Assembly: GCA_029561735.1 (NCBI GenBank)
Contig: JAKQWZ010000019.1
Location: 19,388-83,387, forward strand
Reading direction: 5' to 3'
DNA from: Candidatus Omnitrophota bacterium
GTDB taxonomy: Bacteria; Omnitrophota; Gorgyraeia; Gygaellales; Profunditerraquicolaceae
DNA length: 64,000 bases
The number at the start of each line of letters is the position of its first letter. The first letter of the stretch is position 1. This document shows positions 29,090-64,000 of the stretch, piece by piece. The position numbers and the translations under genes were made by a program. The notes under the pieces are model-generated. The model worked only from the letters and a program-made list of their open reading frames with translations, was not told the DNA's origin and ran no database searches.

Positions 29090-29097
29090 TTTACCTT

Positions 29098-29673: not shown

Positions 29674-29685
29674 TAATTAGGCTAG

Positions 29686-47481: not shown

Positions 47482-50400
47482 TTATCTTATCCTACCTACA
47501 GGGACTGTCCCCGAGGAGCCATTGTTTACTTCAGGCGACGAAGGGGACTGTCCCTTACTCGGGGACACTTCTGTGAGGGATTTCAGAACCGTCCCTACTT
47601 TGCCGCGGACAAATAAATTGCAAGCAGGCGCTAATTCAACCGGCATCCGGCCCCGGCTCTCAATCCTCTGCCAATCTTGGCCAGAGCTATTAAATTTCAT
47701 CGCATCTTCAACATCAGCAATAACAGTTTCTACATATTCAAAAATACCCCGTGCCTGGCAATGAAGCAATAATGATAACTGCGGTTTGGTCAGGGGATAA
47801 CGCAAAGCCACATAATTTCCTTGTCCTGCCTGTTGGGCAGCCCAATCTACGATTTTGCACCACGTCTTTACGCGTTCATAGAAATTCTGGCAGAATGTGC
47901 TGATAGATAAATATAAGCTATTATCCGACGTGGTCAAGATTGCTCCGGCTACAGCCACAAACCTGTTGTTGTGCTCGATCAAATATACGTTCCTGTTTAA
48001 GGCGCGCATGATAAACCCTTCGCCGAGGTTCGTATCATGACCAGTAAGCGTAGTGCCCCACTGAGCCGTAGTCATGTCTGCGTATATATTAAAAGCTTCT
48101 TTTAATAATTCCAAAAACGGCAAATCTTTATCGCTGACAAATTTAATCGCAAATGCCGGATTATTAGTTTTAAAAGATAGCCACAACATCATTATCACTA
48201 TTTCGGCGATTGCGTTTTTTACCAGCCTGTCCGGATTGCTGCCAAGTATCACCAGCAGGCGGCTGGCAACCCTTTCAATAAGCAAAGGGTTATCCAGGCA
48301 AAGTTGAACTAAAGCATTTGTCAAATCATGATTAATACAGCATGGCTGCATATTGATATCAGCAGAATTAATGATCATCTGATCGATATCTTCATCAGTT
48401 GGTATAGTCAAACCATCTTTTACTTGCGATTTAGGCATGACCGAGCCCTCTTTTTCATTTTGGCGAGGGAATCCCGAGCCGCTTCCATTAGGCTTTGAGC
48501 GGCGAGGGGCTCCGCACCCCCCGTCCGCCGGCGGTTCAGGACGTTTGCCTTCTGCAGGATATGTGCCACCCAAATCTTCAATAGCTGTAGGGACTGTCCC
48601 CGCCGTGTCATTTTGCTGGGCGCTCAAAGGGGACTGTCCCTTATCCGGGGACACTTCTGTGAGAGATTTCAGAACCCTGCCTTGCCGGCAGGCAGGCGTC
48701 CCTCCTTTTATATATCCGATTTCAAAAGCATAGGTTAACAAATCAGTGTTGTTGCGCTCAAACCATCCGGATAACTCCTTGAACTCTAGCTCTATATAAT
48801 GATGCAGATACATCCTGCCGATGCTGGTATTAACATAAACGTTGTATTCAAACTGGCGCTTTGGATAACGCAACCTGTTGATCTCATCTCCGAATATTGA
48901 ATCAATATTATTCCACCAAAGATTATGGCACCCTAAAGAACAAGGATCATCGCAAGGCCGGTCTTTGCCCAGCTCATACGAAAAACTTCTACCCGCTCTA
49001 AGCATCACTATAGTAAAATCATCTTTTTGCCAGGGAATAGCCAATCGATTTTCACCGCTGACATAAAAATACCTTTGGCAAACTCTGCCCCTCCAATTTG
49101 AACGGTTAAATCTCAAATGGATGAGCGGAAATAAATTTCGCAGTAAATATTTGAAAGAGGCCGGATAGGGTATCTGTTCCCAGCAATCTACTTCTTTATA
49201 TGTAGTATCCATTAAGCCATCTCCGCCCATACTATCATCAACAAACAAAAGGTTAACAGTGCTTTGGGCTACTATCTCTGCCCATTTATCCATAAATATT
49301 AAATCCGCCTCGCTCTCATGCAGCGAAGGAAGAACTTCGATGGTTGTATCCAGATAATACTCAATTTTTCCCTCATCCAGCCACTCTTGAGCCAAGATAA
49401 ATTCTGCCTGTTTTAACGGTATTCTCCTCTGCTGCGATAACTGCGCAGCAAGCCGGTCAAACTCAAGCTTAGCCTGTTCGGGGTTTTCCAACTGCTGCCA
49501 CCATTGATCAATTGCCCAGACATACGGGACTCCGCTGCGGGCCATGCCAATGACCAATACTGATTTTTTAGTCTGCCTGCTTAAATCAATAGCTACATCA
49601 TTGACATTGCCGGCATCAGCTGCGCTGTGGGCAATCAAACCCTCCAACTGCCAGCGCCGGTAAGCGCTTCCCCGGCTAAAACGGGCTAACTTAATTTCTT
49701 CATCTAATAAATACAGCTGGCTTTTTGTTTCCTCCTGCTTTATTTCCAAACACTGCACTCCCGGGCAAGACGGAATCATTAACAACGGTTCCGGCCCTGG
49801 ATCAATACCGCGAAAAACATTGATCAGAAAATCAAATGCATCCGGATCTTGCTGCGGATAAATTTTACGGATCATGCCGGCCAATTGCTCGCCTAAACAG
49901 TATCCGATTTTGCCTTCTACTTCTTCTACTTCAATTAATTCAGTGCCTTGCGGATTAAATGCAAGGATATATTCCCGAACCCTTTTTATTGCTTCCTCTT
50001 GCGGCAATCCTACTAAAGTAGAACCAAAATTTGATCCTTGCTCATAATTATCTCCCTGCCGCACCCAGCCCGAAGCCAAAACAGCAAAACAAGTGGCAAA
50101 ACAATTATTAGTATCACTATCACACAAACCTAACGCGCATTCCAGGAAATGGCCTGCTTCATGGCAAAATGTATGTTTTTGCCAATGATCTTGCAGGCTT
50201 ATATACTTCCCATATCTGCTATGCTGGCCGTTTATCATGCAATCCGGCAGATTATTAATTTCTTTTTGTGTATCTATTACATAATCTAATGAAAACCAGG
50301 AAAACATGCCTGAAACAATTGTCATAACATAAAATATGAACCAATGATGGCTGTGGAGAACAGGATATAATAACGACAAATATAAGGATATATTAATCAG

Positions 50401-53400
50401 TTCGGCTAATGCTATGCAATTTCTCTGGCGCAACATATAATTACGCATTGAATTAATGCTATAGCCTTTTATTTTTTTGACGATTTCTGCGGCTTCCTTG
50501 GAGCCGGGATCAATAAAGCGCTTTAATAATTCTGCCAGATACGGCTTTACTTCTTGCCAATTATCTAAATTGTGATCAACCCTTACCCTTTCAACTGCTT
50601 TTTGGAAATCTACTGCCGGCGCAGGCAATGGTTTTTCAAAAAGAGAGTAATAAATTCTGACTTTATCCTGAGTAAACATATCATGGTAGAAACTGGCCGC
50701 GTGCTGTTGAACAAAGAATTCGCTCTTGCGCGCATCGCTATAACGCAAACCTAATTTTCTGCCTGCGTTTTTCAGATCTCTAACCAGCCGGGCATATTCT
50801 GTTTCTAAATATAATTTCCCTCCGGGCTTCAAAACTGCAAGAATACCGTTCAAGTTAGCGTAAAAGCTCTCCGTTGGTTTTTTTCGGGAAGTATATTTGA
50901 ATACTGCATCGTCGCCGTTTAAATTAGGGAATTGCACAATGACAAAATCCGCTGTTGAGGGTTCGATCTGCCCCTGCAGTACTCTCAAACTATCTCCGTG
51001 GAAAATATGTATATTCTTTATTCCCAGCTTATCTGCCTCAGTTTGCAATTTTTCAACCAAATATTGATCTACTTCTATCAGATAATAATCAATATCCGGA
51101 TTGTTAATCGCCCGCTGGATTGCTGCCTTGCCATTGCCAAACCCGAGCTCAATACCTATCGCCCTATCAGAACTTGTGGCTTCCTGCCCTTCAAAAAATG
51201 CCGGGTCATTGGCAAATGCGTGGCCTACACCGTAGCGTTTTTCGCTGTACTTTATGGTATAAGAATTTTCTAATTGCCTAACCTGCTCAATATCGCTGCC
51301 GGGAATCAGCACAAAAATAAAATCACCGCTGCGTAGTTCATAATATGCCTTTATTTGTGTGTTGCCGCCTAACTTGTGATAAACCTCAAAAGGATAGCGC
51401 CAGATTTTTGGCCGGGCGGTTAAAGAGCGTTTTATCCAAAGCTCGCCATCCTCATCGTCTTCTACGGAAAAAAGCAATTTATCCGCTGCTCCGGACAGAT
51501 CATTTTCATAGACTGCCAGCTCAATTGCCCCTTGCTGCCATAATTTATGCCGCGCAATCCGCACGCACATCCGGCTATCTTCGCCAGCGCCTAAACGCCA
51601 TGATGTATTGGTGAAAAATGCTCCGTCATTGGCAAATGCGTGGCCTACACCGAAACGCGGCTGTGCAAGATCAATCAATCGCTGAAGCCCAACAGGCATA
51701 CCTCTGGAAGTTTTTTCTTTTAGCCGGTAATGCATTAATAACCCGCCTAGAGTTTTGCCTGCGCATCTTTTAATCGGTACGGAAAAATCAGCCAGTTTTT
51801 CCACTGGCCTACCCAGCTCTTCTACCAATAACCTGATAAACCCTATTTGTATATCTTCCGGAACATTATCCCAGCGGTTAATTCTGCCTTTGCTTAGCTT
51901 CTTGACAAAATAATCCAGTGTCAGATTCTGGTTGAGTCCTATCCTCTCCTTAATATGAGCTAAAACATCAGCAGCGCTCTCTTTTGGATACTGCTTTCGA
52001 TAATATTTCCATAATGACATTAATGATTTATTGCCTAATGCCTTTACCTTCAAGGTAAAATCAGTGCTGCTTAATTCGCCGGCGTCTTTTTTCTTATGTT
52101 TTAAGGCAAGCTCAATAAAATATCGTTGCACATCCAAAGGCACCTGCTCCCATTTATCAAAATGCTTCTGCCTGATAAAAAATCTTATCCACTCTTCGGC
52201 GCTAACCGGATGCTCTTTGATACCTAGCACTTCTTTTATTTTTAATACCACCTCCGGGCGGGATAATTCCGGATACCTTCGGCAATAATAAGTAAGCATC
52301 CCACCCAGGCTTTTTCCCGCTAATAATTTTAATGGCGCTACAAAGTTATAAACCATCACCTGGAAAGATAATTTTCCGCGTTCTTTCGCGGCCTCTTCAA
52401 CAAATTCTCTTTGAATATCTAATGGCGCTTCCGACCAGCAATGGAGCATGCCACTCTTTACTTTTTCCACCCATTCACTAAAACTTAATCCCTGCTGCTT
52501 GATTCCTAGCTTTTTCATAATCAACCGGTTAATCTCATCAGGGGTTGCCGGCTGATGCTGACGGGCATAATAACTGAATAATCCGCTAAGCTGCCTGTTG
52601 CCTAAAATAGCGATCGGCTTGCGGTAATCCTCGCTTTTAAACTGCCCGGGCAGCTTTCCTAATTCAGCAGCTGCCAATTCAATAAATCTTTTCTGCGCTC
52701 TTTCCGGGATTTTGCGCCAAAGAGTAAATTGTCTTTTTTGAATAAAATCAGTAAATATTTTTTCCGGCATTGCCCCTATTGCTACCGGCAGGCTAACCAA
52801 ATCCTCTTGTTCTGTACCTTCTGGCTGCCTGTGATAAATCCGGACCATTGCCCGGTGAATAAAATCTTCCCAGTTATCAGGCGCTATTGCTCCTGCAGCG
52901 ATAAAATTATCCACGCAATACAATGCCCTATTAAGGCATTCGGCTAACAACTCTTCAGTTTTGCCCTCTTGGATCATCCGGTCAAGGCGGGCTAACTCTA
53001 TAATTGATTCTTTGCGCCACGGCGTTGCCTGTTGAGTAGCTTTTTCCTGCCCAAGCAATGCTCCCAGGCAAAACACCGGAGAAACGAAAAGCCCAAAGGA
53101 TGAATGATGATGGACGAGGAGCGATAGAAGGGCCAATATCAATATGCCGGCAAGCAATCCGGATTCGCCGGCTGAGCTTTGCAGCGCCTTTATAATTTTT
53201 GTTTTGGCTCTTTGCAAAGCGTTATCTATTTTTTTGACCCCGACTTTTAAAGTTTCTGCTGCTTCGGCATATGAATCGCCCATGCGCGCTTTAAGCTCAA
53301 AAGCTAGCCTCTCAATCGGCGATAAATTAGCTGCGGCTATCAATTGCCTGAGAACTTCCTGGTTAATACTATGCATAAATGCGTCTTCGGCAGGCGGATC

Positions 53401-56400
53401 AGGAAGCTGGTCGCCGATTTCTTCACTATCATCTTCAAACCTGTATCCGTTTAAAGAAAGATTATTCGGATCCCTTAAGTAGCTCTTAATAGCGCTGCGC
53501 ATAGCATTTTGAGCTGCCCCGCGTAAGTACTTCGCTAAGCTTCCCTTATTATGGTCATATCTTCCGGAGCGTAGCGCCTGATCCATCCTTTCTTCGCATA
53601 GAACAATTAATTCATCTGTTTCCAAACCCGGATAATCTCTGTGTGTTTTCACAGCCTCTATGCGGGCTATCCATCTGTGCTTTTCTAAAATATCTTCTTC
53701 ACTTTCGCCAAATCCGTTTAGCTCATTACTCCTTCTGGTAATCCGGCGCAAAATATCCCGGCGCTCTTTTTTTCTGCCTGCTTCGATAAATAAAGCCACC
53801 TCATCATTGGCTAATTGTTTTTCGGCTTGAACTAATTCTACGTCTGACAAAGCGCTTTCTGCGGGCTGATTAGCCTCTGCAGCCATCGCCTCTGCCTCCA
53901 AAGTTAAGCCGATCTGCCTGCGCACCACATAAGCCACATACTGCTTCCACATCATTTGCTGGTGTTTAGCTACTATAGCTTCCCGGCGCCTTCTTTCTAA
54001 TCGCGCTTTCTGCTCTGCTCTTTCTTGCTGCCGGGATATCCGCGCTGCTTTACTGGCTTCTTTTTGCGCCAAGCGCTCTACTTCTTTTGCCTTTTTAAAT
54101 TCCGCAACAGCATTATCTGCATCTCTGCGGATTTCCTCCTCCCATTCCCCGGGGCTTTGCGCAATAAAATCCAATCCGGTATGGGTTTCAAAAACTTGCG
54201 GTTGCATTTCTGCTTCAATTTCAAGCTTACGCACTTCCAAGCTCTTTAAAGCCCTGCCTACTCCGGATATATGCCAACCACTCTTTCTCTGCCCAGAACT
54301 GGAATAAATCCTTACCGGAGCCATGTCAGCTAAAATAGCTCTGACTTTATCTGCATCAACGCCATATTTTTCCAGCAACTTAACCAAATTTTTAGCCGCC
54401 ACATTACGCATACTGAATACCGAATCTTTAGTTTTATCCATTGCCTGCATTATGGCCGGCATATTCTGTTTATCAACAAAATATGCTTTTAGTATCGCGG
54501 TATTGTCTTTGGTGAATTTCAAGCCGTCTATCACCCAGCCTCCGGCGATAACAGCTTCCAGCTCAACAATAATCTGGCCCAAGTATTTTGGTAAATCTGC
54601 TAACCTATCTTTAGTTAAAACCGGCCCGATTATCTTTTTATCCAGCTCCGATTCCAGTATTTGGTAAACCCTGCTTTTTGCTTCACCCAAAGCCCGGGCA
54701 ACTGCTTTTACTCCGTCGCAGCGGTAAGCAGCGATATTCTGCACTCTTTCTAACTCAAAATTTGCGGCAATCTGCTCTTCAGTTAAAGCTTCCAAATAAT
54801 ACAGTTTTAAAGTTTCCCTCCACACCGGCCTCAGGCCTTTAACCGAGGCTTGCGGATTTGTTACAATCCTGATTATTTCCCGGCTTAATTCCTGATCAGT
54901 TATTACAGGAACAACTGATCCATTTTGCACCAGCCCGAACAATACAGGTAACCCTACAAGTAGGGACGGTTCTGAAATTACCTTCAAAGGTGTCCCCGAC
55001 AGGAACGCTTCTGTGAGGGAATTCAGAACCGTCCCTAAAGAGGCAACAAGCTCGCGGCCAAAGAGCAAGGCCGCCAGAGCCAGCAAGCCTACAACCACCG
55101 CAGCAATAACTCCTATACGACCCTTGCTATCTAGAAGTAGGTTATCGGCAACCGCTTTAGCTGCCCAAAATTCTTCAGCATAAAATCTTTCCAGCTCTGC
55201 TCTTTTATTGCGATAAGCCGGATTAAAAGCAGGGATATTATGCGGCGGCACTGCGGGATACCGGAAATACCCCATCAGATCATCGATCATCGGGAATACT
55301 TCACTATGAATAGTATCATCGTCTTCTAAATACATCTGCTCCTGAGCTAGCCCTATATCCTTAAAGGCAAGGCCAAAATCAGCAACGTGCATAATTTTTA
55401 GTTTACCGTCAGGCTCTCTAATAAGCCTGAAATTACCCTTATGCATATCAGAACGCGGAGCTGTTATTGTTCCGTTTCCTAAAACAGAGGTTTTCATCCT
55501 TGAGTTAATCCAACCTAAAGCGTGCAAACGCGCAAGAATGCTTAACACCTGCTCCGACACGCTCTGCGCCTGCTCAAAATCAAGCATATCCGGACGGATA
55601 TTTTCCAGCCTTTTCGCGTCCTGATATTCAAAAGCCGTGATAACCAGCGGCCCTTGCGCAGTGTAGACGATCTGCCTGCCAAAGGCGTCAATCACACAAT
55701 CGGTATTGACTAATTTAAAAATGGGCAATGTTACCCCTGCGTTAGCGCCAAAATTATTTACCAGATCAGCAGAAACATCAAAATCACTTTCCGATAAGAG
55801 ATGCCTGCCGTATTCAAACATATCCCCGGTCATTTTAAATTCCATAGCATCAGTCACAACACCTGACTGCATGATAAAGATTATCATCCTGCGGAAAGAT
55901 TCGGTTATAGGCGTCATATATACATCTCCAAATAAATGCGTGTATATACCATTATCCAAAGCGTATTGCAACGGCGGACGCGGATCTTTGGCGCTTATTT
56001 CAGGCGGATATTCCTGACGTAATTCACTGCCCAAATGGATAAGCTCGCGCAAATTCTGCATATCAATGAACAAATTCAGGATACCCGGATGTTTCTGCGC
56101 AAAACTACTAACAGCTATATCTTCTCCGGAATCAAGGAAAGTAAATTTACTGCAGGAAGTAGCGATTACAGCAATCAAACATACCGCAAGCAGGGACGGT
56201 TCTGAAATTACCTTCAAAGGTGTCCCCTCTGGTGACAGTTGTGTAAAGAAAATCAAAACCACCCCTAACAATATCACTTGCATAGGTTTTTCACTAACAG
56301 CGGTACGGATTTTACCCGATAGCCGATAAAACCAATCTTTTACTCTGGTAAATAATTCCGGCCAGCAAGAAAGTTCTTTGGCTTCTTTATGGAGAGAAAT

Positions 56401-59400
56401 AACTCTATGGAATATTTCATCGTGGCCATGGAAAACCTGATGCTGCAGCGCCCTTAATGCGTAGTGGCATTTTACGGATTCCGGGACGTTTTCCGGGGTA
56501 AAACCGTTTTCTTCCAGTTTTTGTTCGTAGAATCTCTGGTCAGTTACAAAAGCAAGGATTTCGTCTGCGGTAATTAACTCTGCGGCATTGGCTGCGTGGC
56601 CTAATTCGTGGAACTGGGCAAGCGGATTATCAAAAATACTGCTGTGTAAGCCGACTACCGGCGCACCGTCATACATCGCGGCAAAACCGGGAATATCCAG
56701 ACTACGGTCAATTTCTATCAATAAGGAACGCGGGTCTTCGGTGATATCTACAAGGATTATCTCTAAGGCGCTGTCAATATCACTGATCCCTATACGGGTA
56801 AAATCCGCAAATCTCTCCGGAGGCGCGCGTATGCCGTGGATAGTGGCTTCTTCTTTTTGCTTAGCCCCAAACCTGCGGATCATCGCCTTGATTATCACCT
56901 GATCATCCGGCAAAATCTCCAGCGACTCTATTTCTATACTCTCATATTTTCCTATAGCACCGCATTTTGGCTCAGTTTCAGCTGATTCCCGTGCAGAAAC
57001 AGGGACAGAATTATTGCTTCCGCCTCCAGACAACTTCCAAAGCGCTAATCCGGCTATTGCAATTAATCCAGCAAACGAAGTGGCAAGTGGCAAGTTGCAA
57101 GTTACAAGTGGGATGGAAAATGCTGGAGAAGCAATAAACAATAAAACTAATAGTGGTAATACAACAAATCTAAATAGCGGAGCCCAATTTATTCGGGATT
57201 TTCCCTGCTCCACAATGCCTCTTTGTTCCAATAATTTCTCGATATTCCCGTTTGCTTCAATCAAGTCTGAATGCGTTACCACCCGGGCAAGCAATTCTTC
57301 ATATAGATCCTGAGAAATAGCCCTGCCCTCCTTTGCAACTTTTAATCCCGATTCAAAGAATTCTTTTTCTTCATCAATAATCAAGTATATGAGATGTAAT
57401 TTGCGCGGAATGCCGAATATATAATGATACCAAGGATAAGCTGCAGCTTCTTTGACAATTGCACGATATTGAAAGCCTCTCATAAATAAATAGCCGCATC
57501 GGCTGAATTCTTCAATAGTCTCACCTTCAAATCCGCGGGCAAAAGATGAACCATCGCAATAATACTTTGCCAGATAGATTAAATTACGCAAAGCAATTGC
57601 TCCTAAAAGATAAAATACAATACTATAATTACAATGATATAAACAAAATACTCCCAACCCGAATAATAGAACCAATGTAAATGACTTAACGCCTATTCTA
57701 GAATCAAGCCCGGGATGGATTCTTCCAACAAGCATAATATTAAGCAGATTATATTTCCCGCCGTAATCCGCCGCGGCTGTATGCTGCCAATAATTTGTGC
57801 TTTGCGCTAATTCTTTAATTCTCTCATTCTGACTTAGTATCTTCTCTTCTATATCATTATGCTCACGCCAATTTCGTCCTCTTTCCCACCCACCCCAACT
57901 GCCGGGAGCAATGCCAAGAAAACCTACAAGATCCATTGGCCAGCCAAATAATTTATAAATAAACTTCCTTACTTGAACAGATAAGCTATTGGCCTGACAT
58001 TTAAACTTATCAGATATATCAATTCCCAGATAGCTGTAAACTCTTTTGACGTTTTTCCAACTTTGTTGATCTAGGTAATTGATATTACAAATGACAAGTT
58101 CAGTGGCGGCAATAGATACGTCTAAAATAGAAAAAATAATTTCGTCTAAACAATGCCAATGATATTCACCTATCCTTGTTGGCCATACTAATAAGGCTTC
58201 TACGATCTGATCGGGAGAAATGATATAGCCTGCCTGTCGGCGGATAACTTCTGCGGCTATTGAGAAAGTCCTGCCGACTAACTCCGGCGGGATATCTTTT
58301 GACTTAATATCTTTAAATTCTTCCTTGAGCAATTCAATTTCCCGCTTTAGCTGATTTTCGGATATCCCTTGAAGAAGTTTTTCGCGTAAAGCAAGGATAA
58401 ACTGCGCCTGTTCTTTTAAGTCTTCCGGCCAGATATATTCTGACGCGAATACTGTTCCGTCTTCAGTTACCGGCGCAACGACCTTTGGAACCGCAGAACC
58501 AATTACATTTGGCTTTTTCTGGAAAAATCCGGCAATCACTAACATTGCCAAAACAGCTAATCCAACTATTGCAATTAATTCAGCTGCGCCTGCGGGTGGA
58601 GCGTGGGGCTGGACCGATTTCCAGAACTGCTCAAGGCCGCCCGAGTAAAAACCATCCAACATGCCGGCAAAAGGAAGGACTAATAAAAACGGCATCCCAG
58701 ATTTAGCAGCCGGCACATTAGTAACTTGGGCGGCTCTTTCTGACAGCTGCTTACCCTCCTCAATTATCTGCGAGTAAAGATGCAAGGCTTGTTGCGAGTC
58801 GCGATCCAATACAAAATAATAAATGGATAATAATTCCTTATCTGTCAGATGGGCACGCCCTTTGTAGAAATACTTAGCCAATAAGCCTTCAAAATATTTT
58901 ATTTGCATATCAGTATAGCCGCTGCGGGCTTTGAATTCGTTTCGTTTTTGGCGGGCATACCTAGCTTCCTTAACTAATACACAGCTTACGTAAATAACCG
59001 ATATTGCTATCCATGTAATAGCCAAAATCACCAGCCACTCGGATAAACTTCCCGGCCAGCCAATAGCTACAAATCCTAAACAGCCCATGCCTTTCCATAA
59101 ATCATCAGGGTTGTCGCGCATCAGGCTGCGGATTGTTTTAGCAAATTCCTGGGGAGAAAAACTGAATTGCTTCCCGCTACTTTGGTTACCCCAGCCAGGC
59201 CATAATTTTGCCATCCTGCGATTAATGGTCAGATTAGCGCGGTAAAATCTCCCCTTGACTGTAGGCACACTTACACCCAGTAATCCGGCTATTTCTCTTA
59301 AATTGTAGCCTTGCATTGCCAAAGCCACTACTTCCCGGCGTTCTGACGGCAATGATCTAATAATATCCTGTATTGCTAAAACCTGCTCTGCACACGCCAT

Positions 59401-62400
59401 GTCCGAAGCAAAAGTATCAGCTTGCGCCGGAGTAAGTTCGTCATAAAGCTGAGCCTCGCTCTTAGGTGATCCCATTGCCTCATTATAAGGTAAATCAACG
59501 ACTAACGCCTCACGCCTGCGTTTTTTGACGGCGTTATAAATCAGGTTATGTATAGAGGCATAAATGATGGTTTTAAAGCTCGAGAGGCATTTGAAATTGC
59601 GGCAGCATTTTAAAAATACTACTTCTAGATCAGCCAGCTCAATTTCCAGCTCTTCCAATCTAAAGCCAAATCCGGCGGCGAAAGTAAAGGCAGTGCCCAT
59701 TAAATAGGTATTCAGGCCTTTTTTGCAGTCTTCATTGATAAACCTCTGTACTTCTTGACGCGCTGCCTCGCTCTTAAAGCCGATTTTATCGTCTTCTATC
59801 TGCACCCTAGCCAGATCCGGCCCGCCGCCGTAATTTATCGGGCCGTCATACGGAGCCACATCCGGCCTTGACCCGCCTTCGCTAGTAATAGAAGAAATTA
59901 CCTCGGAAGGATGCGTATAAAACACCTGTTCATAAATGCTGTAGCCTTTATCCAGATCAATGCTGCCAACGCGCTCCCTGAAACACAGAGGAAAGATTAT
60001 TTGCGGCTCCCCGGGCAATTTTGTCATTTGTAGAATAAAGTGCGCGTCTTTAGCCTCAACTGTCTTGATGCCAACTGCCCTGCATTGTTTATTAAGAAAA
60101 TCTATAATTCTGTCGTAATCAACGCTTGTGACAATGGCACTGTTATCAGTATTCCTGGAGTTTAATATCTTGCGCGGGTCAAAATGCAAAGAGGATATCC
60201 CGTCTACCTGCAAAATCCGATGCGCCTCTTCAAAAGCAATAACCGGATCATAAACGTAAGGCAAGGCATAAGTAGACATTACTATATGGAATGAATCATA
60301 GGCAAAAGGCAGGTTCTGACTGTCCGCGCAGACAACATGAATCCCTTTCCCGCGTAATTCTTCGCTGCGCTGCTGTGAACTAAAATTACGCAGCGTTGTG
60401 CCCACCACAAAGATCTTATCGCCGAAAACCTCTTTAATTTCTTCCAAGGCAACTGCCCGGCCGCAGCCGATATCGAGTATACGCAGTGGATTTTCAGCAG
60501 AAGCGTTGAAATATTTTATCATTGCCGAAATTATGTTATAGAAATTTACTCCGTGGATTTCGTTATATCCGTCCTCTCCGCGCACTCCCCGTAGAGTCTT
60601 CATCTTACCGGATAATTTTCCTGATTGAAATACTGCCCCCAGGCCCTCAATATATTGCTGGCTCGAATAGAATTTACGATATTCCGGGTCATTGCGGCGC
60701 CCATACTGACGCATAGCATGAACACTGCGCCAAACTTCATCTACAACAGGTTTAACCGGCTCTTCTGTTTCAGGAGCAACAATGCTTTCTTCTTTAATTA
60801 CTCCCTGCCAATAGGCAAAATTCTCTGTCTCCAAAGCCACAAACTCATCTATATCGCTTCTTAATCCTCTATTTCTTCCTGCGACAAAAGCCGGGAATAG
60901 AACCGCGTAATACTGCCGGCTATCCAGGAGGCCTGAATCTACCAAGGATTTTCCGAATTTAAAATAGGCGCAAGCTGCCTCAAGCACATCGTCATTGATA
61001 TTGGCTTCCTGCAAAAGATGTTCTACTGTCTCCCCTACGTAACAGAATGCCTTGGCATACTGATTGGCATCCATAACTAAATGCAGGAAACGCAGACTCT
61101 CTTCTTCGCGCATAAGGCATTCACCGCTAGCTATCATCAGAGGCAGATACAAAGGCTTGTCGCCTGCGGAATAAGAAAAATTGTATTCCGGAAAATCTTC
61201 ACAAATAAAAGCATTACTGTCTAAACCTGATAATTCTCCCAAGCCGCGCCTAATTATACGCTCGTGCATGCGCGTGCCAGGAAAAGATATAACTTGCGGG
61301 CTAATCGGGCCTAAGCCGCCTTCCAGTGCCGGCATAACAATACGGCTTACCCGGCGTAAAGCATCAATATCTTCCGAAGAAACAGAACCCGGATTAACCA
61401 GAATATAATTTGCATCCTGACTGCCGCGCATAAGCTCTATTACGCCCTCCGTAAGATCCTGCCTGTGTTCACTTGCTCCGTTTAATATAACCAGCCTCGT
61501 TTTTTCTTTGAAACTGCGGTCATCCACAGCCACCGCCAGATTACGAATAGTCTCAAGCACGTCCTTAAGCCGGGTGTCAATGTTGGTTAAAATAAGATAC
61601 TGAATACTGGGGATGCCCAGATGGCGCAGGCATACCACTACTTTTAAGATATCTTCAAACTTGTAACCCTTATTTTGCCGCGCCAATTCTTCGTCGGTAA
61701 ATGCATCTGTGCCGATGGCTAATCCCATCTCCGAGAATATATAGTTATTTTCGCCGTAAAGCGCATGCAATTTCTGCACAAAGTCCGTGTTGATCTCATT
61801 TTGTACTTTTCCCGCAGCATCACTGTGTTTCTCCAGAAATACATTATCGGAAGTCTGGATATGGCGCACGCGCAATTTCGCTAAACCCGGATCACTTGCC
61901 CATTTCCTTAATATCTCCAAACCGCGCTCACCGCACTCTGCCAGGAAAAAGTCATCATCTACAAAATCCACCACACAGAAATTTTCTATATCTATACCAT
62001 GAGTTTGTGCATACTCCGCAAACCTCTTCAACTCCCTTATCACTGCTTCAGGCGGCATTGCCCTCACATGCTTTCCATGCACGGCGGAACAGAAAACACA
62101 CCCACGGTTACAGCCGCGCGAAGTCATCAGCTGCAGAATAATTGGCGGCGTGTTGGTTAGATCAAGGAAAGAATAATCAAGTTCGAGGTTGGTTAACTCT
62201 TCGACACTAAGGCGATTGGGCTGGCCGCTTGCGCAGTCTATCAATACATTGCCCTGTCTGAAGATAAATCCTCCGAGTTCCAACAGCTCCGTTAATATCC
62301 GGCTGGGAACGCTGTGGCTACCCATGATCTTAAGCATTCCCGGAAAAACAATTTCTGCTTCTCCGGCAAAAACAATATTCGCCTCGGGAAGCTGGGCCGC

Positions 62401-63987
62401 GCAAATTTCAGGCGTCATAGTTGCCATCGGCCCGCCCACAGCAATAAGCAACTCTGGGAACCGCTTACGGATATGCGCTAATAATATCTGCATCTCATCA
62501 AGCCCGGCAGCATAAACAGTAAATCCGAGAAGAGACGGATTTGCTTTTTCAATAGCCGCGTCAATTTCAGTGAATAAAAACTTACCTTGATTTTTTTGTA
62601 TCCCCGCACAGGTTATTTCTGTAGGTATACCTGCTTTGCGCAAACTAGAGCCAAGATAATGGCTTGAGACTGAAATAGCACCCTGGTCCCTTCTATCACG
62701 AGAGAATACGGGATTGGAGAATAAAAGCACTTTGCTTTCTACTCCGGGCATAGCTAGATTACCGGCAACCCCTACTCTTGTTTCCTTTAACGCTTCTTTT
62801 GCTTGGTTAATATAAATCCTTTGCTCCTGCCTACTTAAATAAAGAAATTCCTGCTGCAGGCGGACGATCAAACGCGGATTATCCCATGAAATATCTTTCG
62901 CTATCTCTATAACTTCTTGTAGCGACTGAGAAGATCCGATATAAATGACACCGCCGCTTATTACCCTACTCTTAATCTCATCTTTAAAGATAACTTCCAT
63001 CGAGCGGATCAGCCTAAAATATGCCTGCGAAGGTATCTCTATCAATTCCGGATTAAAGGCAAGCCACTTGCCGGAACATCCTACCGGCTCCATAATAATT
63101 TTCCCCTCGTCATCAACCACAGGGATTCTTCTTATTGGTTCGCGGATCTCCTCACAAGCTGTGCCATCTTCTATTGCCGGCCCGCCGCCGTAATTTATCG
63201 GGCCGTCATAAGGTCCAACATCCGGCCTTGAGCCGCCTTCCGGATTATCCACAACGTAGGGGACTGTTCCTGCCTGCCGGCAGGCAGGTAAACCTCCCCT
63301 GCGGCTGTTAATAACTTCGAAATCCGGCGCGCCGGTAGGCGGCATTTGCTCCAGCACTTGCGGGCTTCCCAACTTATTGCTTATCCAGACATAATAATAA
63401 CGGATAAAACCGCAAAGCTCATAAAGATTGGCAGCAATTTCTCCCCAGCCGTAAAGATGCGCTGGCTCGTGAAATCTTTGTTTAGTATATTGAAGATTTT
63501 CCGGCAAATGCTTAAAGGCAGGGTCACAGAATATATGCGATATTCCTTCGTGGATAATTGATTGACTGACAGGCATAAACAGATACTTGATAATCAGCTT
63601 AACTTGCTCCAGCGGAGGGCCGCGCAAGCCATATTCTTTAATCATTGCTCTTAAAGTAAAAAGCCCGTTATACTGAAAATATATACTTGCGGCAAATATA
63701 GCCAAACCAATAATCCAGCCGTAGGCCAGTCCGATAAAAGATAAACTCAACAGATAAAGCGCACCTGCCAATGCCAGCGCTGCGGCAGCATTGGAAGGCA
63801 TAGATTGTGGCTGCCTACCTTGAGCCGGGTAATTTTTCAAATGGCTAAACATCAGAGAATATTTTGACCATAAGCGCAGGATAATTTTTACCGGGCCTTG
63901 GCCGCCGGATTTATATAATTTCCCGTCAATATATACTTGCCAATAAGCACCTGAATATTCTAATTCGGCTATATATTTATAATCCAC
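47482..63987 (-). CDS. Giant 5501-codon multi-module ORF. The upstream end is not closed within the window.
   Basis: 16,506 nt without a stop in the standard code. The ATG at 63985-63987 has no in-frame stop above it before the window edge. Recognisable modules, by protein position:
- N-terminal TM helices.
- B12-binding radical SAM at ~440-900 (CNRGCVFCSA).
- Class I SAM methyltransferase at ~1130-1330 (ILDIGCGRAVA).
- ECF-sigma-like sigma2+sigma4 at ~1395-1600 (REVVALAMQGYNLREIAGLLGVSVPTVKGR) followed by a TM helix.
- HELGH motif at ~2461.
- Kinase-like DMHKGN...ADFG at ~2780-2890.
- Second ECF-sigma-like module at ~3430-3600 (LSPIERLAFELKARMGDSYAEAAETLKV) followed by TM helices.
- Four tandem ~95-aa repeats at ~3780-4100.
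- TrmB-like MTase at ~4270-4420 (IGIELGFGNGK).
- HEAGH motif at ~4609.
- A C-terminal ~270-aa module.
REP palindromes are embedded in-frame. Whether it is translated as one polypeptide is unresolved. Confidence 0.6.
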   Translation of the reverse strand: MDYKYIAELEYSGAYWQVYIDGKLYKSGGQGPVKIILRLWSKYSLMFSHLKNYPAQGRQPQSMPSNAAAALALAGALYLLSLSFIGLAYGWIIGLAIFAASIYFQYNGLFTLRAMIKEYGLRGPPLEQVKLIIKYLFMPVSQSIIHEGISHIFCDPAFKHLPENLQYTKQRFHEPAHLYGWGEIAANLYELCGFIRYYYVWISNKLGSPQVLEQMPPTGAPDFEVINSRRGGLPACRQAGTVPYVVDNPEGGSRPDVGPYDGPINYGGGPAIEDGTACEEIREPIRRIPVVDDEGKIIMEPVGCSGKWLAFNPELIEIPSQAYFRLIRSMEVIFKDEIKSRVISGGVIYIGSSQSLQEVIEIAKDISWDNPRLIVRLQQEFLYLSRQEQRIYINQAKEALKETRVGVAGNLAMPGVESKVLLFSNPVFSRDRRDQGAISVSSHYLGSSLRKAGIPTEITCAGIQKNQGKFLFTEIDAAIEKANPSLLGFTVYAAGLDEMQILLAHIRKRFPELLIAVGGPMATMTPEICAAQLPEANIVFAGEAEIVFPGMLKIMGSHSVPSRILTELLELGGFIFRQGNVLIDCASGQPNRLSVEELTNLELDYSFLDLTNTPPIILQLMTSRGCNRGCVFCSAVHGKHVRAMPPEAVIRELKRFAEYAQTHGIDIENFCVVDFVDDDFFLAECGERGLEILRKWASDPGLAKLRVRHIQTSDNVFLEKHSDAAGKVQNEINTDFVQKLHALYGENNYIFSEMGLAIGTDAFTDEELARQNKGYKFEDILKVVVCLRHLGIPSIQYLILTNIDTRLKDVLETIRNLAVAVDDRSFKEKTRLVILNGASEHRQDLTEGVIELMRGSQDANYILVNPGSVSSEDIDALRRVSRIVMPALEGGLGPISPQVISFPGTRMHERIIRRGLGELSGLDSNAFICEDFPEYNFSYSAGDKPLYLPLMIASGECLMREEESLRFLHLVMDANQYAKAFCYVGETVEHLLQEANINDDVLEAACAYFKFGKSLVDSGLLDSRQYYAVLFPAFVAGRNRGLRSDIDEFVALETENFAYWQGVIKEESIVAPETEEPVKPVVDEVWRSVHAMRQYGRRNDPEYRKFYSSQQYIEGLGAVFQSGKLSGKMKTLRGVRGEDGYNEIHGVNFYNIISAMIKYFNASAENPLRILDIGCGRAVALEEIKEVFGDKIFVVGTTLRNFSSQQRSEELRGKGIHVVCADSQNLPFAYDSFHIVMSTYALPYVYDPVIAFEEAHRILQVDGISSLHFDPRKILNSRNTDNSAIVTSVDYDRIIDFLNKQCRAVGIKTVEAKDAHFILQMTKLPGEPQIIFPLCFRERVGSIDLDKGYSIYEQVFYTHPSEVISSITSEGGSRPDVAPYDGPINYGGGPDLARVQIEDDKIGFKSEAARQEVQRFINEDCKKGLNTYLMGTAFTFAAGFGFRLEELEIELADLEVVFLKCCRNFKCLSSFKTIIYASIHNLIYNAVKKRRREALVVDLPYNEAMGSPKSEAQLYDELTPAQADTFASDMACAEQVLAIQDIIRSLPSERREVVALAMQGYNLREIAGLLGVSVPTVKGRFYRANLTINRRMAKLWPGWGNQSSGKQFSFSPQEFAKTIRSLMRDNPDDLWKGMGCLGFVAIGWPGSLSEWLVILAITWIAISVIYVSCVLVKEARYARQKRNEFKARSGYTDMQIKYFEGLLAKYFYKGRAHLTDKELLSIYYFVLDRDSQQALHLYSQIIEEGKQLSERAAQVTNVPAAKSGMPFLLVLPFAGMLDGFYSGGLEQFWKSVQPHAPPAGAAELIAIVGLAVLAMLVIAGFFQKKPNVIGSAVPKVVAPVTEDGTVFASEYIWPEDLKEQAQFILALREKLLQGISENQLKREIELLKEEFKDIKSKDIPPELVGRTFSIAAEVIRRQAGYIISPDQIVEALLVWPTRIGEYHWHCLDEIIFSILDVSIAATELVICNINYLDQQSWKNVKRVYSYLGIDISDKFKCQANSLSVQVRKFIYKLFGWPMDLVGFLGIAPGSWGGWERGRNWREHNDIEEKILSQNERIKELAQSTNYWQHTAAADYGGKYNLLNIMLVGRIHPGLDSRIGVKSFTLVLLFGLGVFCLYHCNYSIVFYLLGAIALRNLIYLAKYYCDGSSFARGFEGETIEEFSRCGYLFMRGFQYRAIVKEAAAYPWYHYIFGIPRKLHLIYLIIDEEKEFFESGLKVAKEGRAISQDLYEELLARVVTHSDLIEANGNIEKLLEQRGIVEQGKSRINWAPLFRFVVLPLLVLLFIASPAFSIPLVTCNLPLATSFAGLIAIAGLALWKLSGGGSNNSVPVSARESAETEPKCGAIGKYESIEIESLEILPDDQVIIKAMIRRFGAKQKEEATIHGIRAPPERFADFTRIGISDIDSALEIILVDITEDPRSLLIEIDRSLDIPGFAAMYDGAPVVGLHSSIFDNPLAQFHELGHAANAAELITADEILAFVTDQRFYEQKLEENGFTPENVPESVKCHYALRALQHQVFHGHDEIFHRVISLHKEAKELSCWPELFTRVKDWFYRLSGKIRTAVSEKPMQVILLGVVLIFFTQLSPEGTPLKVISEPSLLAVCLIAVIATSCSKFTFLDSGEDIAVSSFAQKHPGILNLFIDMQNLRELIHLGSELRQEYPPEISAKDPRPPLQYALDNGIYTHLFGDVYMTPITESFRRMIIFIMQSGVVTDAMEFKMTGDMFEYGRHLLSESDFDVSADLVNNFGANAGVTLPIFKLVNTDCVIDAFGRQIVYTAQGPLVITAFEYQDAKRLENIRPDMLDFEQAQSVSEQVLSILARLHALGWINSRMKTSVLGNGTITAPRSDMHKGNFRLIREPDGKLKIMHVADFGLAFKDIGLAQEQMYLEDDDTIHSEVFPMIDDLMGYFRYPAVPPHNIPAFNPAYRNKRAELERFYAEEFWAAKAVADNLLLDSKGRIGVIAAVVVGLLALAALLFGRELVASLGTVLNSLTEAFLSGTPLKVISEPSLLVGLPVLFGLVQNGSVVPVITDQELSREIIRIVTNPQASVKGLRPVWRETLKLYYLEALTEEQIAANFELERVQNIAAYRCDGVKAVARALGEAKSRVYQILESELDKKIIGPVLTKDRLADLPKYLGQIIVELEAVIAGGWVIDGLKFTKDNTAILKAYFVDKQNMPAIMQAMDKTKDSVFSMRNVAAKNLVKLLEKYGVDADKVRAILADMAPVRIYSSSGQRKSGWHISGVGRALKSLEVRKLEIEAEMQPQVFETHTGLDFIAQSPGEWEEEIRRDADNAVAEFKKAKEVERLAQKEASKAARISRQQERAEQKARLERRRREAIVAKHQQMMWKQYVAYVVRRQIGLTLEAEAMAAEANQPAESALSDVELVQAEKQLANDEVALFIEAGRKKERRDILRRITRRSNELNGFGESEEDILEKHRWIARIEAVKTHRDYPGLETDELIVLCEERMDQALRSGRYDHNKGSLAKYLRGAAQNAMRSAIKSYLRDPNNLSLNGYRFEDDSEEIGDQLPDPPAEDAFMHSINQEVLRQLIAAANLSPIERLAFELKARMGDSYAEAAETLKVGVKKIDNALQRAKTKIIKALQSSAGESGLLAGILILALLSLLVHHHSSFGLFVSPVFCLGALLGQEKATQQATPWRKESIIELARLDRMIQEGKTEELLAECLNRALYCVDNFIAAGAIAPDNWEDFIHRAMVRIYHRQPEGTEQEDLVSLPVAIGAMPEKIFTDFIQKRQFTLWRKIPERAQKRFIELAAAELGKLPGQFKSEDYRKPIAILGNRQLSGLFSYYARQHQPATPDEINRLIMKKLGIKQQGLSFSEWVEKVKSGMLHCWSEAPLDIQREFVEEAAKERGKLSFQVMVYNFVAPLKLLAGKSLGGMLTYYCRRYPELSRPEVVLKIKEVLGIKEHPVSAEEWIRFFIRQKHFDKWEQVPLDVQRYFIELALKHKKKDAGELSSTDFTLKVKALGNKSLMSLWKYYRKQYPKESAADVLAHIKERIGLNQNLTLDYFVKKLSKGRINRWDNVPEDIQIGFIRLLVEELGRPVEKLADFSVPIKRCAGKTLGGLLMHYRLKEKTSRGMPVGLQRLIDLAQPRFGVGHAFANDGAFFTNTSWRLGAGEDSRMCVRIARHKLWQQGAIELAVYENDLSGAADKLLFSVEDDEDGELWIKRSLTARPKIWRYPFEVYHKLGGNTQIKAYYELRSGDFIFVLIPGSDIEQVRQLENSYTIKYSEKRYGVGHAFANDPAFFEGQEATSSDRAIGIELGFGNGKAAIQRAINNPDIDYYLIEVDQYLVEKLQTEADKLGIKNIHIFHGDSLRVLQGQIEPSTADFVIVQFPNLNGDDAVFKYTSRKKPTESFYANLNGILAVLKPGGKLYLETEYARLVRDLKNAGRKLGLRYSDARKSEFFVQQHAASFYHDMFTQDKVRIYYSLFEKPLPAPAVDFQKAVERVRVDHNLDNWQEVKPYLAELLKRFIDPGSKEAAEIVKKIKGYSINSMRNYMLRQRNCIALAELINISLYLSLLYPVLHSHHWFIFYVMTIVSGMFSWFSLDYVIDTQKEINNLPDCMINGQHSRYGKYISLQDHWQKHTFCHEAGHFLECALGLCDSDTNNCFATCFAVLASGWVRQGDNYEQGSNFGSTLVGLPQEEAIKRVREYILAFNPQGTELIEVEEVEGKIGYCLGEQLAGMIRKIYPQQDPDAFDFLINVFRGIDPGPEPLLMIPSCPGVQCLEIKQEETKSQLYLLDEEIKLARFSRGSAYRRWQLEGLIAHSAADAGNVNDVAIDLSRQTKKSVLVIGMARSGVPYVWAIDQWWQQLENPEQAKLEFDRLAAQLSQQRRIPLKQAEFILAQEWLDEGKIEYYLDTTIEVLPSLHESEADLIFMDKWAEIVAQSTVNLLFVDDSMGGDGLMDTTYKEVDCWEQIPYPASFKYLLRNLFPLIHLRFNRSNWRGRVCQRYFYVSGENRLAIPWQKDDFTIVMLRAGRSFSYELGKDRPCDDPCSLGCHNLWWNNIDSIFGDEINRLRYPKRQFEYNVYVNTSIGRMYLHHYIELEFKELSGWFERNNTDLLTYAFEIGYIKGGTPACRQGRVLKSLTEVSPDKGQSPLSAQQNDTAGTVPTAIEDLGGTYPAEGKRPEPPADGGCGAPRRSKPNGSGSGFPRQNEKEGSVMPKSQVKDGLTIPTDEDIDQMIINSADINMQPCCINHDLTNALVQLCLDNPLLIERVASRLLVILGSNPDRLVKNAIAEIVIMMLWLSFKTNNPAFAIKFVSDKDLPFLELLKEAFNIYADMTTAQWGTTLTGHDTNLGEGFIMRALNRNVYLIEHNNRFVAVAGAILTTSDNSLYLSISTFCQNFYERVKTWCKIVDWAAQQAGQGNYVALRYPLTKPQLSLLLHCQARGIFEYVETVIADVEDAMKFNSSGQDWQRIESRGRMPVELAPACNLFVRGKVGTVLKSLTEVSPSKGQSPSSPEVNNGSSGTVPVGRIR
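47501..47596. repeat. REP cluster (two family-B gggactgtcccc units plus one family-A unit) inside the 3' end of the giant ORF, immediately before the PilZ start
   Basis: gggactgtcccc (47501-47512), ggggactgtccc (47543-47554), ggggacacttctgtgagggatttcagaaccgtccct (47561-47596). Translated as VGTVLKSLTEVSPSKGQSPSSPEVNNGSSGTVP. Confidence 0.6.
48590..48705. repeat. REP cluster (B, B, A) with a nested family-C palindrome inserted into the A unit
   Basis: The cluster has the same B...B...A organisation as 47501-47596. The A unit ggggacacttctgtgagagatttcagaacc is interrupted by ctgccttgccggcaggcagg (48677-48696), then resumes with cgtccct. Confidence 0.6.
54963..55036. repeat. Family-A REP dimer (REPIN-like: forward unit, 11-nt spacer, reverse unit) in-frame in the giant ORF
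   Basis: gggacggttctgaaattaccttcaaaggtgtcccc gacaggaacgc ttctgtgagggaattcagaaccgtccct. Encodes GTVLNSLTEAFLSGTPLKVISEPSLL between two hydrophobic segments. Confidence 0.6.
56193..56266. repeat. Family-A REP unit plus a decayed partner copy in-frame in the giant ORF
   Basis: gggacggttctgaaattaccttcaaaggtgtcccc followed by the degenerate gtgtaaagaaaatcaaaaccacccct. Encodes EGTPLKVISEPSLL. Confidence 0.55.
59817..59880. repeat. 64-nt coding repeat, copy 1 (copy 2 at 63177..63240)
   Basis: ccggcccgccgccgtaatttatcgggccgtcata is identical in both copies and ~90% identity holds over 64 nt. Encodes GGSRPDV(A/G)PYDGPINYGGGP at giant-ORF residues ~1371-1390 and ~251-270. Confidence 0.7.
63177..63240. 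repeat. 64-nt coding repeat, copy 2
   Basis: See 59817..59880. This copy lies directly adjacent to the B/C element at 63258-63300. Confidence 0.7.
63258..63300. repeat. Family-B-like unit fused to a family-C palindrome in-frame in the giant ORF
   Basis: ggggactgttcc tgcctgccggcaggcagg taaacctcccct. Encodes GGLPACRQAGTVPYV. Confidence 0.5.
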
Positions 63988-64000
63988 TTCATTTTTCCAT

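Follow-up and report, generated by a model that had tools for sequence, protein, structure and literature searches.

The 64,000-nt stretch of a Candidatus Omnitrophota contig analyzed here (the window) carries on its minus strand an open reading frame (ORF) of at least 16.5 kb, of which 5,505 codons are visible. The frame is one genuine, continuous coding frame under selection. With a probability of about 75%, it was read as the 3' portion of a genuine giant gene of the Omnitrophota class described as 'TM-only' (TM, transmembrane), i.e., multi-enzyme proteins anchored in the inner membrane, with a mode of action that we infer.

Coding status of the frame

No in-frame stop occurs between the window edge and the TAA at positions 47482–47484 that ends the gene. 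With a stop probability of 0.0616 per codon, calculated from the base composition of the minus strand, 5,505 codons free of stops have a probability of about 1e-152. The other two minus-strand frames contain 388 and 455 stops, and the longest stop-free stretch elsewhere in the window spans 841 codons. Codon log-odds, trained on 20 neighboring genes with Pfam support, were highest in the giant frame in 55 of 55 segments of 100 codons, and the coding score also stayed best in the segments lying across repeat-containing junctions. An earlier note on this DNA had argued that such a frame is beyond chance, which these numbers bear out. Its count of 5,501 codons described a real long frame but began at the GTG at position 63987. 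Since the frame is open to the window edge, this GTG has no claim to be the start, and the gene continues upstream of the window, as the note had proposed. An alternative genetic code was ruled out, in agreement with the note, since the neighboring genes use TAA, TAG and TGA as stops. With the N-terminal 400 residues as query, no match was found in GTDB representatives or JGI metagenomes.

The frame was also followed in other assemblies. A JGI contig (L001) was 100% identical over window positions 40893–57481, and the giant gene is called there as a 3,888-aa product that is ended by the contig edge and covers residue 1618 onward. The 3' end was present in four more assemblies at 88–100% nucleotide identity, with the frame open. 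Among strains, the indels within the ORF were of +1, −8 and −7 codons, all multiples of three nucleotides. The ratio of nonsynonymous to synonymous polymorphism (pN/pS) was 0.22–0.5 in the Pfam-negative C-terminal modules, with about 0.22–0.24 for residues 5185–5470 and 0.28–0.5 for residues 4760–5100. In-frame indels together with pN/pS below 1 indicate selection on the frame.

Variation was uneven along the locus. At the giant 3' end and in the adjoining PilZ gene (46774–49726; strains L002 and L092), pS was raised to 0.04–0.06, compared with 0.007 or less in the ABC transporter and GH genes downstream. In L092, hypervariable patches were found at residues ~4890–4990, where the surrounding block has 88% nucleotide identity within DNA that is otherwise 98–100% identical. 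The patches and the raised divergence suggest recombination or diversifying turnover.

Modules, orthologue and domain families

Divergent domains tile the visible protein (Table 1), and six Pfam families were matched with E from 1e-6 to 1e-14. The B12-binding domain (PF02310, residues 447–553, E=1.8e-8) is N-terminal to a Radical_SAM core (PF04055, from residue 626, E=1.9e-8) with an intact CNRGCVFC, i.e., CxxxCxxC, at residues 630–637. This is the layout of Class B (B12-binding) radical S-adenosylmethionine (SAM) proteins; the best radical SAM equivalog, TIGR04072, scored 50 bits against a cut-off of 360. Two SAM methyltransferase domains were found, Methyltransf_11 and Methyltransf_4. The second one scored 46.4 bits with the TrmB equivalog TIGR00091, whose cut-off of 112.65 was not reached, and it is TrmB-like in fold only.

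Two modules resemble sigma factors of the extracytoplasmic function (ECF) type. Sigma70_r4_2 matched above its gathering score of 25.7 bits in both, at residues 1542–1588 (40.5 bits, E=2.2e-10) and 3557–3602 (28.5 bits, E=1.2e-6). The ECF profile TIGR02937 stayed just under its 42.9-bit cut-off, with 37.6 bits over positions 40–163 in module 1 and 40.2 bits over positions 3–165 of 165 in module 2, and Pfam Sigma70_r2 matched neither module.

About nine TM sites were located by a hydropathy scan, at residues 71–106, ~1640–1674, ~1780–1826, 2102–2144, 2278–2323, 2575–2622, 2962–3033, ~3611–3655 and ~4529–4575, with the segments mostly paired between soluble modules. In the TM-rich region, SecA_DEAD (PF07517) gave a weak match at residues ~1861–1996 (E=0.01, 15.6 bits vs. 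a cut-off of 24.6). HExxH motifs stand at residues 177, 2464 and 4613, and no Pfam or NCBIfam peptidase family matched anywhere in the 5,505 residues. Against PDB sequences, nothing significant was found with the profile of the ~95-aa repeats or with the C-terminal 746 residues.

The domain composition given in the earlier note was largely recovered. Hidden Markov model (HMM) searches returned the B12-binding radical SAM domain, sigma region 4 and both methyltransferases; the membrane anchor was found as a TM hairpin with about eight more, the tandem ~95-aa repeats in four copies, and the C-terminal module, put at ~270 aa, with ~285 aa and no family match. Its two ECF-sigma-like modules hold, with region 4 above the cut-off and the whole ECF profile just below it in both, and where it counted two HExxH motifs there are three.

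Table 1. Features of the window treated in the text; residues are those of the visible part of the giant protein
Feature	Position	Strand	Details
RAYT, IS200-like Y1_Tnp	29075..29745	+	161 aa (29188-29673); inverted REPs either side; E=1.7e-18
PilZ-domain gene	46774..47481	-	ATG directly abuts TAA of the giant gene
Giant ORF, 3' part	47482..63999	-	5,505 sense codons plus TAA; 5' end beyond the window
REP cluster at 3' end of ORF	47493..47596	-	In frame; structure differs among strains
C-terminal ~285-aa module	47590..48447	-	Residues 5185-5470; REP clusters either side; no family
REP cluster with 21-nt palindrome	48582..48705	-	In frame, 5' of the C-terminal module
Module without family	48700..49722	-	Residues 4760-5100; mosaic, hypervariable among strains, frame kept
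TM segments with HEAGH motif	49720..50592	-	Residues 4470-4760; no family
TrmB-like Methyltransf_4	50776..51162	-	Residues 4280-4408; Pfam E=2.6e-14, 53.5 bits vs. 24
~140-aa module	51194..51657	-	Between two 44-nt repeat copies; no function assigned
Four tandem ~95-aa repeats	51670..52797	-	Residues ~3735-4110; 23-31% identity to first copy
ECF-sigma-like module 2	53182..53700	-	Residues 3434-3606; TIGR02937 and Sigma70_r4_2
HTH-rich (helix-turn-helix) region	54130..54912	-	Residues 3030-3290; conserved in P0001 and P0002; no family
REP doublet (REPIN-like)	54957..55038	-	In frame; 16-bp perfect stem, -41.5 kcal/mol, z=-6.4
Protein-kinase-like domain	55348..56100	-	Residues 2634-2884; family without Pfam model
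REP doublet (REPIN-like)	56187..56268	-	In frame; -29.1 kcal/mol, z=-2.5
Conserved HExxH domain	56365..56979	-	Residues 2341-2545; family without Pfam model
TM-rich region	56980..59082	-	Residues 1640-2340; about four TM hairpins
ECF-sigma-like module 1	59206..59613	-	Residues 1463-1598; Sigma70_r4_2 and partial TIGR02937
Junction repeat 'GGSRPDVAPYDGPINYGGGP'	59817..59880	-	Copy 2 of 64-nt direct repeat
Class I SAM methyltransferase, Methyltransf_11	60196..60477	-	Residues 1175-1268; Pfam E=1.3e-11
B12-binding and radical SAM module	60730..62712	-	Residues ~430-1090
Junction repeat 'GGSRPDVGPYDGPINYGGGP'	63177..63240	-	Copy 1 of 64-nt direct repeat
M1	63295..63999	-	Residues 1-235; TM hairpin 71-106, conserved HEPAH motif

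Word-indexed homologue searches with residues 1601–3000, with residues 3010–5505 and with the radical SAM core gave no match; their candidate list is full at 8,000 entries and missed even Pfam-positive domains, so these blanks do not count as absence. An exhaustive HMMER search with residues 2340–3539 against 1.84 billion representatives returned 110 proteins. P0001 (NCBI GCA_041663985.1) is 59% identical over the query region and occupies a 17.4-kb frame without a stop, open at both contig ends. Its annotated Met was rejected as the N-terminus: 88 in-frame codons upstream of it, TM-like, reach the contig edge without a stop. The earlier note had pointed to orthologues as a check, and P0001 has the same multi-module continuous frame. 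Collinear backbone blocks were found at window residues 1–229 (P0001 338–559, 55% identity), 2339–2568 (2701–2930, 66%), 2583–3008 (3344–3767, 61%), 2969–3656 (4644–5344, 48%) and 4232–4337, the start of the TrmB-like domain (5603–5712, 25%), while the cassettes between them are unrelated. In place of window residues 280–2340, which hold the radical SAM domain, Methyltransf_11, sigma module 1 and the TM-rich region, P0001 has ~2,100 different residues. Its Pfam record includes sigma-like modules, as well as CheR, a PrmA/MTS-type methyltransferase and a HAD hydrolase, all three absent from the window protein. By sequence motif, an extra segment between its HExxH and kinase-like modules is methyltransferase-like, and a ~900-residue segment after the kinase-like module is HAD-like at its start. 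Related copies of the ~95-aa repeats occur at another position. A pair of orthologues with the backbone kept and the cassettes swapped is direct evidence for the modular evolution of giant genes.

Two backbone modules belong to domain families without a Pfam model. The kinase-like module was found in 97 copies in 93 long proteins, at most four per protein, and the HExxH module in 20 copies in 15 long proteins, at most three per protein; the carriers are mostly of 1,000–6,700 aa. Complete genes on long contigs are P0068 (6,728 aa) and P0003 (4,267 aa; L090, NCBI GCA_964640155.1, contig CAZXEQ010000003.1), the latter with four kinase-like copies and no Pfam hit on record. P0003 lies directly downstream of a 6,580-aa gene with AprA_N, WHD_AprA, Methyltransf_36 and HD_4, so long genes can stand in tandem.

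The consensus of the kinase-like family comprises 'TESFRRH', 'E-x-K-I-P-G', 'DGKRL', 'H-x-L-G-Y', 'D-x-H-x-x-N' and 'G-D-F'. N208 is invariant, and D203 and D226 are present in at least 90% of 30 sequences; the assignment of these catalytic residues is backed by the E72-x-K motif and by the alignment to the kinase HRD...N...DFG. Searches of PDB sequences gave nothing significant with the module sequence alone and sub-significant matches (E=0.17–1.7) with the family profile; 13 of the 16 listed were protein kinases, and the printed alignments cover helix E, the catalytic loop and DFG. The AlphaFold model of the module (pLDDT 87, pTM 0.85) was compared with the PDB by Foldseek, where 50 of the 50 top matches were protein kinases (E=1e-4 to 2e-3) and the best TM-scores, 0.43–0.45, were to RIO2. 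No Pfam kinase family matched the window copy at E≤1 or the 30 family members at E≤0.1. Of the UbiB/Kdo/RIO-like kinase fold proposed in the earlier note, the bilobal fold is therefore confirmed by the model, but the module falls outside the RIO, Kdo and UbiB families of Pfam. With RIO-type and other minimal protein-kinase-like (PKL) domains, it shares this predicted fold and the best TM-scores, the conserved Lys in 'E-x-K', the 'D-x-H-x-x-N' catalytic loop and 'G-D-F'. It differs from them in having no Pfam kinase match and modest TM-scores, in the invariant 'TESFRRH' and an N-terminal helical extension, and in being a repeated module within giant proteins.

In the HExxH domain, H-E-x-x-H plus a further H are invariant across 19 sequences, with a Q also listed as invariant, and its profile gave nothing significant against PDB sequences. 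Both the protein-kinase-like family without a Pfam model and the conserved HExxH family, whose fold is not assigned, appear to be new. HMMs of the two families would annotate part of the 'dark' sequence in many giants.

Repeats at the module junctions

Several short peptides are present in exactly two copies each, as the DNA that encodes them is itself repeated. One of the repeat families consists of repetitive extragenic palindromic (REP) elements with the unit GGGACGGTTCTGAAAT.CCTCACAGAAGTGTCCCC, and four REP clusters lie in the giant frame without introducing a stop (Table 1). Two of them are inverted doublets that sit either side of the kinase-like module and are translated as 'LSPEGTPLKVISEPSLL', which makes up a TM-hairpin loop with its flanks. 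The remaining two lie on both sides of the C-terminal module and vary among strains; in L002 and L003 (the latter at nt 1–131), the 3' cluster is converted and holds one GGGACAGTCCC unit more. The REP hairpins have z from -3.3 to -6.4, apart from the doublet at 56187–56268 (z=-2.5). In P0001, closely related REP doublets are in frame at both orthologous junctions, and the extra cassettes of this protein lie directly upstream of each doublet.

A REP-associated tyrosine transposase (RAYT) gene lies elsewhere in the window, and its flanking inverted REPs belong to the same family as those within the giant ORF, of which it is presumed to be the source. An exact REP scan of JGI metagenomes matched only another strain of the giant-gene locus and is therefore silent on the genome-wide distribution of REPs. 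The RAYT insertion separates the genes for phosphoglycerate mutase and MnmG, which abut without an insert in the locus of Ca. Omnitrophota MAG177 (L008).

Other junctions are made of repeats without REPs. The copies of a 64-nt direct repeat, 92% identical, bracket the cassette of radical SAM and methyltransferase, and a 44-nt repeat encoding 'YGVGHAFANDxAFF' (51194–51237 and 51614–51657) lies either side of the ~140-aa module. In addition, a perfect palindrome of 20–21 nt, CCTGCCTGCCGGCAGGCAGG, occurs twice in the giant ORF (48683–48705 and 63275–63297) and reads 'PACRQ(A)G'; strain L092 is without the first copy, with a clean gap of 7 codons, and a related 'CLAGRQA' sequence stands beside the REP doublets of P0001. 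The contig of L002 opens (nt 1–1244) with the end of the C-terminal module, a REP cluster and then the beginning of that module again. This order is what duplication in tandem of the module with its flanking REPs would give, although it may be an assembly effect at the contig end.

In known REP/REPIN-RAYT systems, a single Y1 transposase gene lies between inverted REPs, which are imperfect palindromes of ~35 nt, and REPs and REPINs are by definition extragenic (PMC2817692; PMC3116915). The RAYT with inverted flanking REPs, the palindromic units and the hairpin-forming inverted doublets found here resemble these systems. The difference is that four clusters, including two full doublets, are inside an ORF and in frame, where the copies encode TM-hairpin loops or linkers, and that doublets occupy the same junctions in an orthologue. 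Small palindromic repeats tolerated in frame and translated are reportedly known from the Rickettsia palindromic elements (RPEs) described by Ogata et al. in 2000, which lie within genes and are said to be translated as an extra peptide. RPEs measure ~100–150 bp and are another element family in another phylum; we know of no RAYT partner for them and of no report of them at the module junctions of giant genes.

RAYT-associated REP elements and doublets in frame at module junctions, also at those of an orthologue, appear to be new. The available passages on the very long proteins of Omnitrophota contain no description of in-frame REP elements. The facts fit a gain and loss of cassettes by recombination at the repeated junctions, a mechanism that we infer. 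It is a tentative and rather doubtful idea that REP doublets have been co-opted both as coding junctions, in the form of TM-hairpin loops that persist at orthologous junctions of proteins sharing just ~60% identity, and as recombination points where cassettes are inserted, deleted, duplicated or swapped, perhaps also serving as mRNA hairpins or translation-pause sites. If this were true, the assembly and diversification of giant modular genes would in part be the work of a selfish repeat family, and in-frame REPs or REPINs at junctions, if general, would link a mobile repeat system to giant-gene construction.

Assignment, alternatives and genomic setting

Giant genes of Omnitrophota are known but poorly understood, with few annotated domains. 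According to Seymour et al. (2023), ORFs of >20 kb, rich in TM helices and sparsely annotated with domains, occur in most classes of the phylum (PMC10066038). The Archaeovorins of West-Roberts et al. (2023) are proteins longer than 30,000 aa in which TM regions are numerous and the domains highly divergent, with SecA_DEAD-like, methyltransferase, glycosyl transferase and glycoside hydrolase content; they are typified by a 39,678-aa protein of Velamenicoccus archaeovorus LiM (bioRxiv 10.1101/2023.11.21.568195). Nielsen & Lui (2026), who have 176 complete Omnitrophota genomes, catalog 916 long proteins (≥10,000 aa), 46% of them 'TM-only' and read as cytoplasmic modules on the inner membrane; PF08241 recurs in 137 proteins and PF04055 in 90, and a group of 20 proteins with PF07517 SecA_DEAD is one of the two largest architecture clusters (bioRxiv 10.64898/2026.06.07.730766). 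The earlier note knew of no protein family with the architecture of the window protein. This claim did not hold, since giant TM-rich multi-enzyme ORFs are already a published hallmark of Omnitrophota (PMC10066038; bioRxiv 10.1101/2023.11.21.568195; bioRxiv 10.64898/2026.06.07.730766).

With the TM-only, multi-enzyme class, the window protein shares the phylum, the tiling of one frame by divergent Pfam domains (PF08241, PF04055), enzymes of cytoplasmic type interspersed with many TM helices, and an architecture that is kept while the sequence diverges. With Archaeovorins, it shares the giant Omnitrophota ORF, numerous TM regions, SAM-dependent methyltransferases and divergent domains, and possibly a SecA_DEAD-like remnant, whose match is under threshold. 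It differs from them in having no HEAT, GT5/GT1, GH, TPR, NUDIX or C39 domain in the 5,505 visible residues, its content in the window being related to regulation and modification and not carbohydrate-active. The protein is a divergent new example of the Omnitrophota giants, and the architecture class itself is not new; a very long multi-domain ORF is expected in this phylum, and current understanding is not overturned. The sigma-like modules of such giants may not have been remarked on before, as the word 'sigma' has no occurrence in either preprint (bioRxiv 10.1101/2023.11.21.568195; bioRxiv 10.64898/2026.06.07.730766). They resemble membrane-tethered ECF sigma/anti-sigma systems in region 4 (module 2 over the full length of the ECF profile) and in the TM segments directly after them. 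On the other hand, they are under the ECF cut-off and lie thousands of residues inside one polypeptide, and no anti-sigma domain was detected in the window protein.

The chain of the window protein would enter the inner membrane again and again, and its modules would all face the cytoplasm. The TM hairpins argue for this orientation, together with the cytoplasmic type of every recognizable module, each dependent on SAM, ATP, a reduced Fe-S cluster or DNA/RNA polymerase; where helices are paired, the chain comes back to the side from which it entered. Such a tethered array would co-localize SAM-dependent modification enzymes with signaling and regulatory modules. Expression would be shared with the abutting gene for a PilZ (c-di-GMP-binding) protein: its ATG adjoins the TAA of the giant gene, as it also does in L002 and L092. 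Co-transcription with translational coupling is suggested by this, and from this arrangement the two genes are probably co-expressed. The gene would evolve by swap, insertion and deletion of cassettes at repeated junctions, several of them in-frame REPs. The embedded sigma-like modules and the abutting PilZ gene point to a regulatory, not a prey-degrading, role of this subclass, and the 'modification or regulatory megaprotein' of the earlier note is a fair guess at the function.

Several points weigh against this assignment. The 5,505 visible residues compare with published thresholds of >20 kb per ORF, ≥10,000 aa and >30,000 aa. Residues ~280–1617, with the radical SAM domain, Methyltransf_11 and sigma module 1, were seen in this window only, supported there by the coding statistics, and L001 may come from the same source sample as the window. 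Every recognizable domain gives a weak match to its family, and all NCBIfam scores stayed under their cut-offs; with the sigma modules and the TrmB-like domain among them, some modules may be inactive. The topology is based on a simple hydropathy scan. Published work notes that membrane insertion still awaits validation for proteins of this length, and an extracellular location is assumed for some giants.

Other explanations of the frame were also weighed. A self-processing polyprotein is unlikely. Its cleavage sites would be the junction peptides that are repeated (GGSRP..., YGVGHAFAND... and the linkers encoded by REPs), and its own HExxH modules might do the cutting. By analogy with regulated anti-sigma proteolysis, cleavage would free the enzymes and the membrane-tethered sigma-like modules. 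The three HExxH motifs, one in the domain with invariant H-E-x-x-H plus H, and the duplicated short peptides that bracket modules speak for it, and cleavage of giants by embedded peptidases is raised as a possibility by West-Roberts et al. (bioRxiv 10.1101/2023.11.21.568195). However, two of the four junction-peptide families are mere translations of REP DNA, which accounts for their repetition with no need of a protease site, and peptidase matches are absent, as stated above. Somewhat less probable is a recently fused operon, in which once-separate genes lost their stops, the REPs mark the old intergenic spacers and the modules are maybe still made from internal starts. REPs are normally extragenic, and this family flanks an intergenic RAYT (29.1–29.7 kb), yet four clusters are at module boundaries; moreover, an ATG preceded by AAGAGG, similar to a Shine–Dalgarno (SD) sequence, stands at residue 5188, just past a REP cluster and at the start of the C-terminal module. 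Internal starts were nevertheless not enriched, since ATG with an SD-like motif occurred five times in frame vs. seven and two times in the other frames. In addition, P0001, at 59% identity, has the same modules and REP doublets already in one frame, so any fusion would be old and not recent; copies of the kinase-like and HExxH modules are mostly embedded in other very long proteins, with a maximum of four per protein, and the REP doublets encode TM-hairpin loops, not spacer-like sequence. For the 'fusion of a formerly multi-gene locus' that the earlier note had suggested, the evidence points both ways: in relatives, these modules are parts of other giant proteins and not genes of their own, whereas REPs at the junctions are what old intergenic spacers would leave.

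A shade more improbable still is a protein of the Archaeovorin or dockerin type that serves in attack or adhesion outside the cell, displayed on the surface to bind prey cell walls and break them down. The phylum, the many TM segments, the divergent methyltransferases and the weak SecA_DEAD-like match are as in Archaeovorins, but no glycosyl transferase, glycoside hydrolase, HEAT, TPR, NUDIX, C39, dockerin or TSP3 domain was found in the 5,505 residues. Besides, the radical SAM domain, the SAM methyltransferases, the sigma-like modules and the kinase fold need cytoplasmic cofactors or partners, and the pairing of TM segments would leave every module on the same side. It is hardly credible that the frame is an assembly artefact, with short reads joining unrelated genes via repeats, or a non-functional read-through that is not translated whole. 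The gene contains several repeats of 44–82 nt, where public contigs tend to break, and a second assembly is lacking for the segment around residues ~280–1617. The repeats are, however, just 66–92% identical and thus poor substrates for mis-joins. The 3' 11.7 kb is identical in the JGI contig, the 3' end recurs in the four further samples, and the independent P0001 genome has the same kind of continuous frame. Loss of every stop by chance across joins, all in one frame, is not credible, and the in-frame indels and pN/pS below 1 likewise argue against an artefact.

The window is an ordinary bacterial chromosome with a one-directional gene array. Besides the genes already mentioned, it contains a sugar ABC transporter, GH2-like genes, ROK and LacI regulators, a class II ribonucleotide reductase, a two-component system and Mrp/complex-I-like genes in addition to PilZ, phosphoglycerate mutase and MnmG. 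The best matches of MnmG were metagenome-assembled genomes of Candidatus Omnitrophota among GTDB species representatives, at 66, 58 and 57% identity. The genes for ribonucleotide reductase, phosphoglycerate mutase, MnmG, a ferredoxin-like (Fer4) protein, a response regulator and a histidine kinase are syntenic with those of MAG177, at 60–80% amino acid identity. From this six-gene synteny and the MnmG matches, the host is an Omnitrophota bacterium, one without a close species representative. It occurs in several metagenomes (JGI, ENA, Logan), with JGI 3300010357, ENA ERZ4216102 and SRR12487046 among the samples.

A phage origin, which the one-directional array had brought up, was ruled out by the housekeeping genes and the synteny. 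A defence system was rejected as well: PADLOC gave only generic methyltransferase similarity to mad2 and a weak match of the B12-binding domain. Both methyltransferase modules match this MADS model weakly, with E=9e-7 (55501–63999) and 1e-8 (47485–56997). Finally, direct DNA repeats at 11861–16579 and 38716–43611 correspond to paralogues, namely three adjacent Proton_antipo_M (Mrp/complex-I-like) genes and neighboring GH2-like genes.

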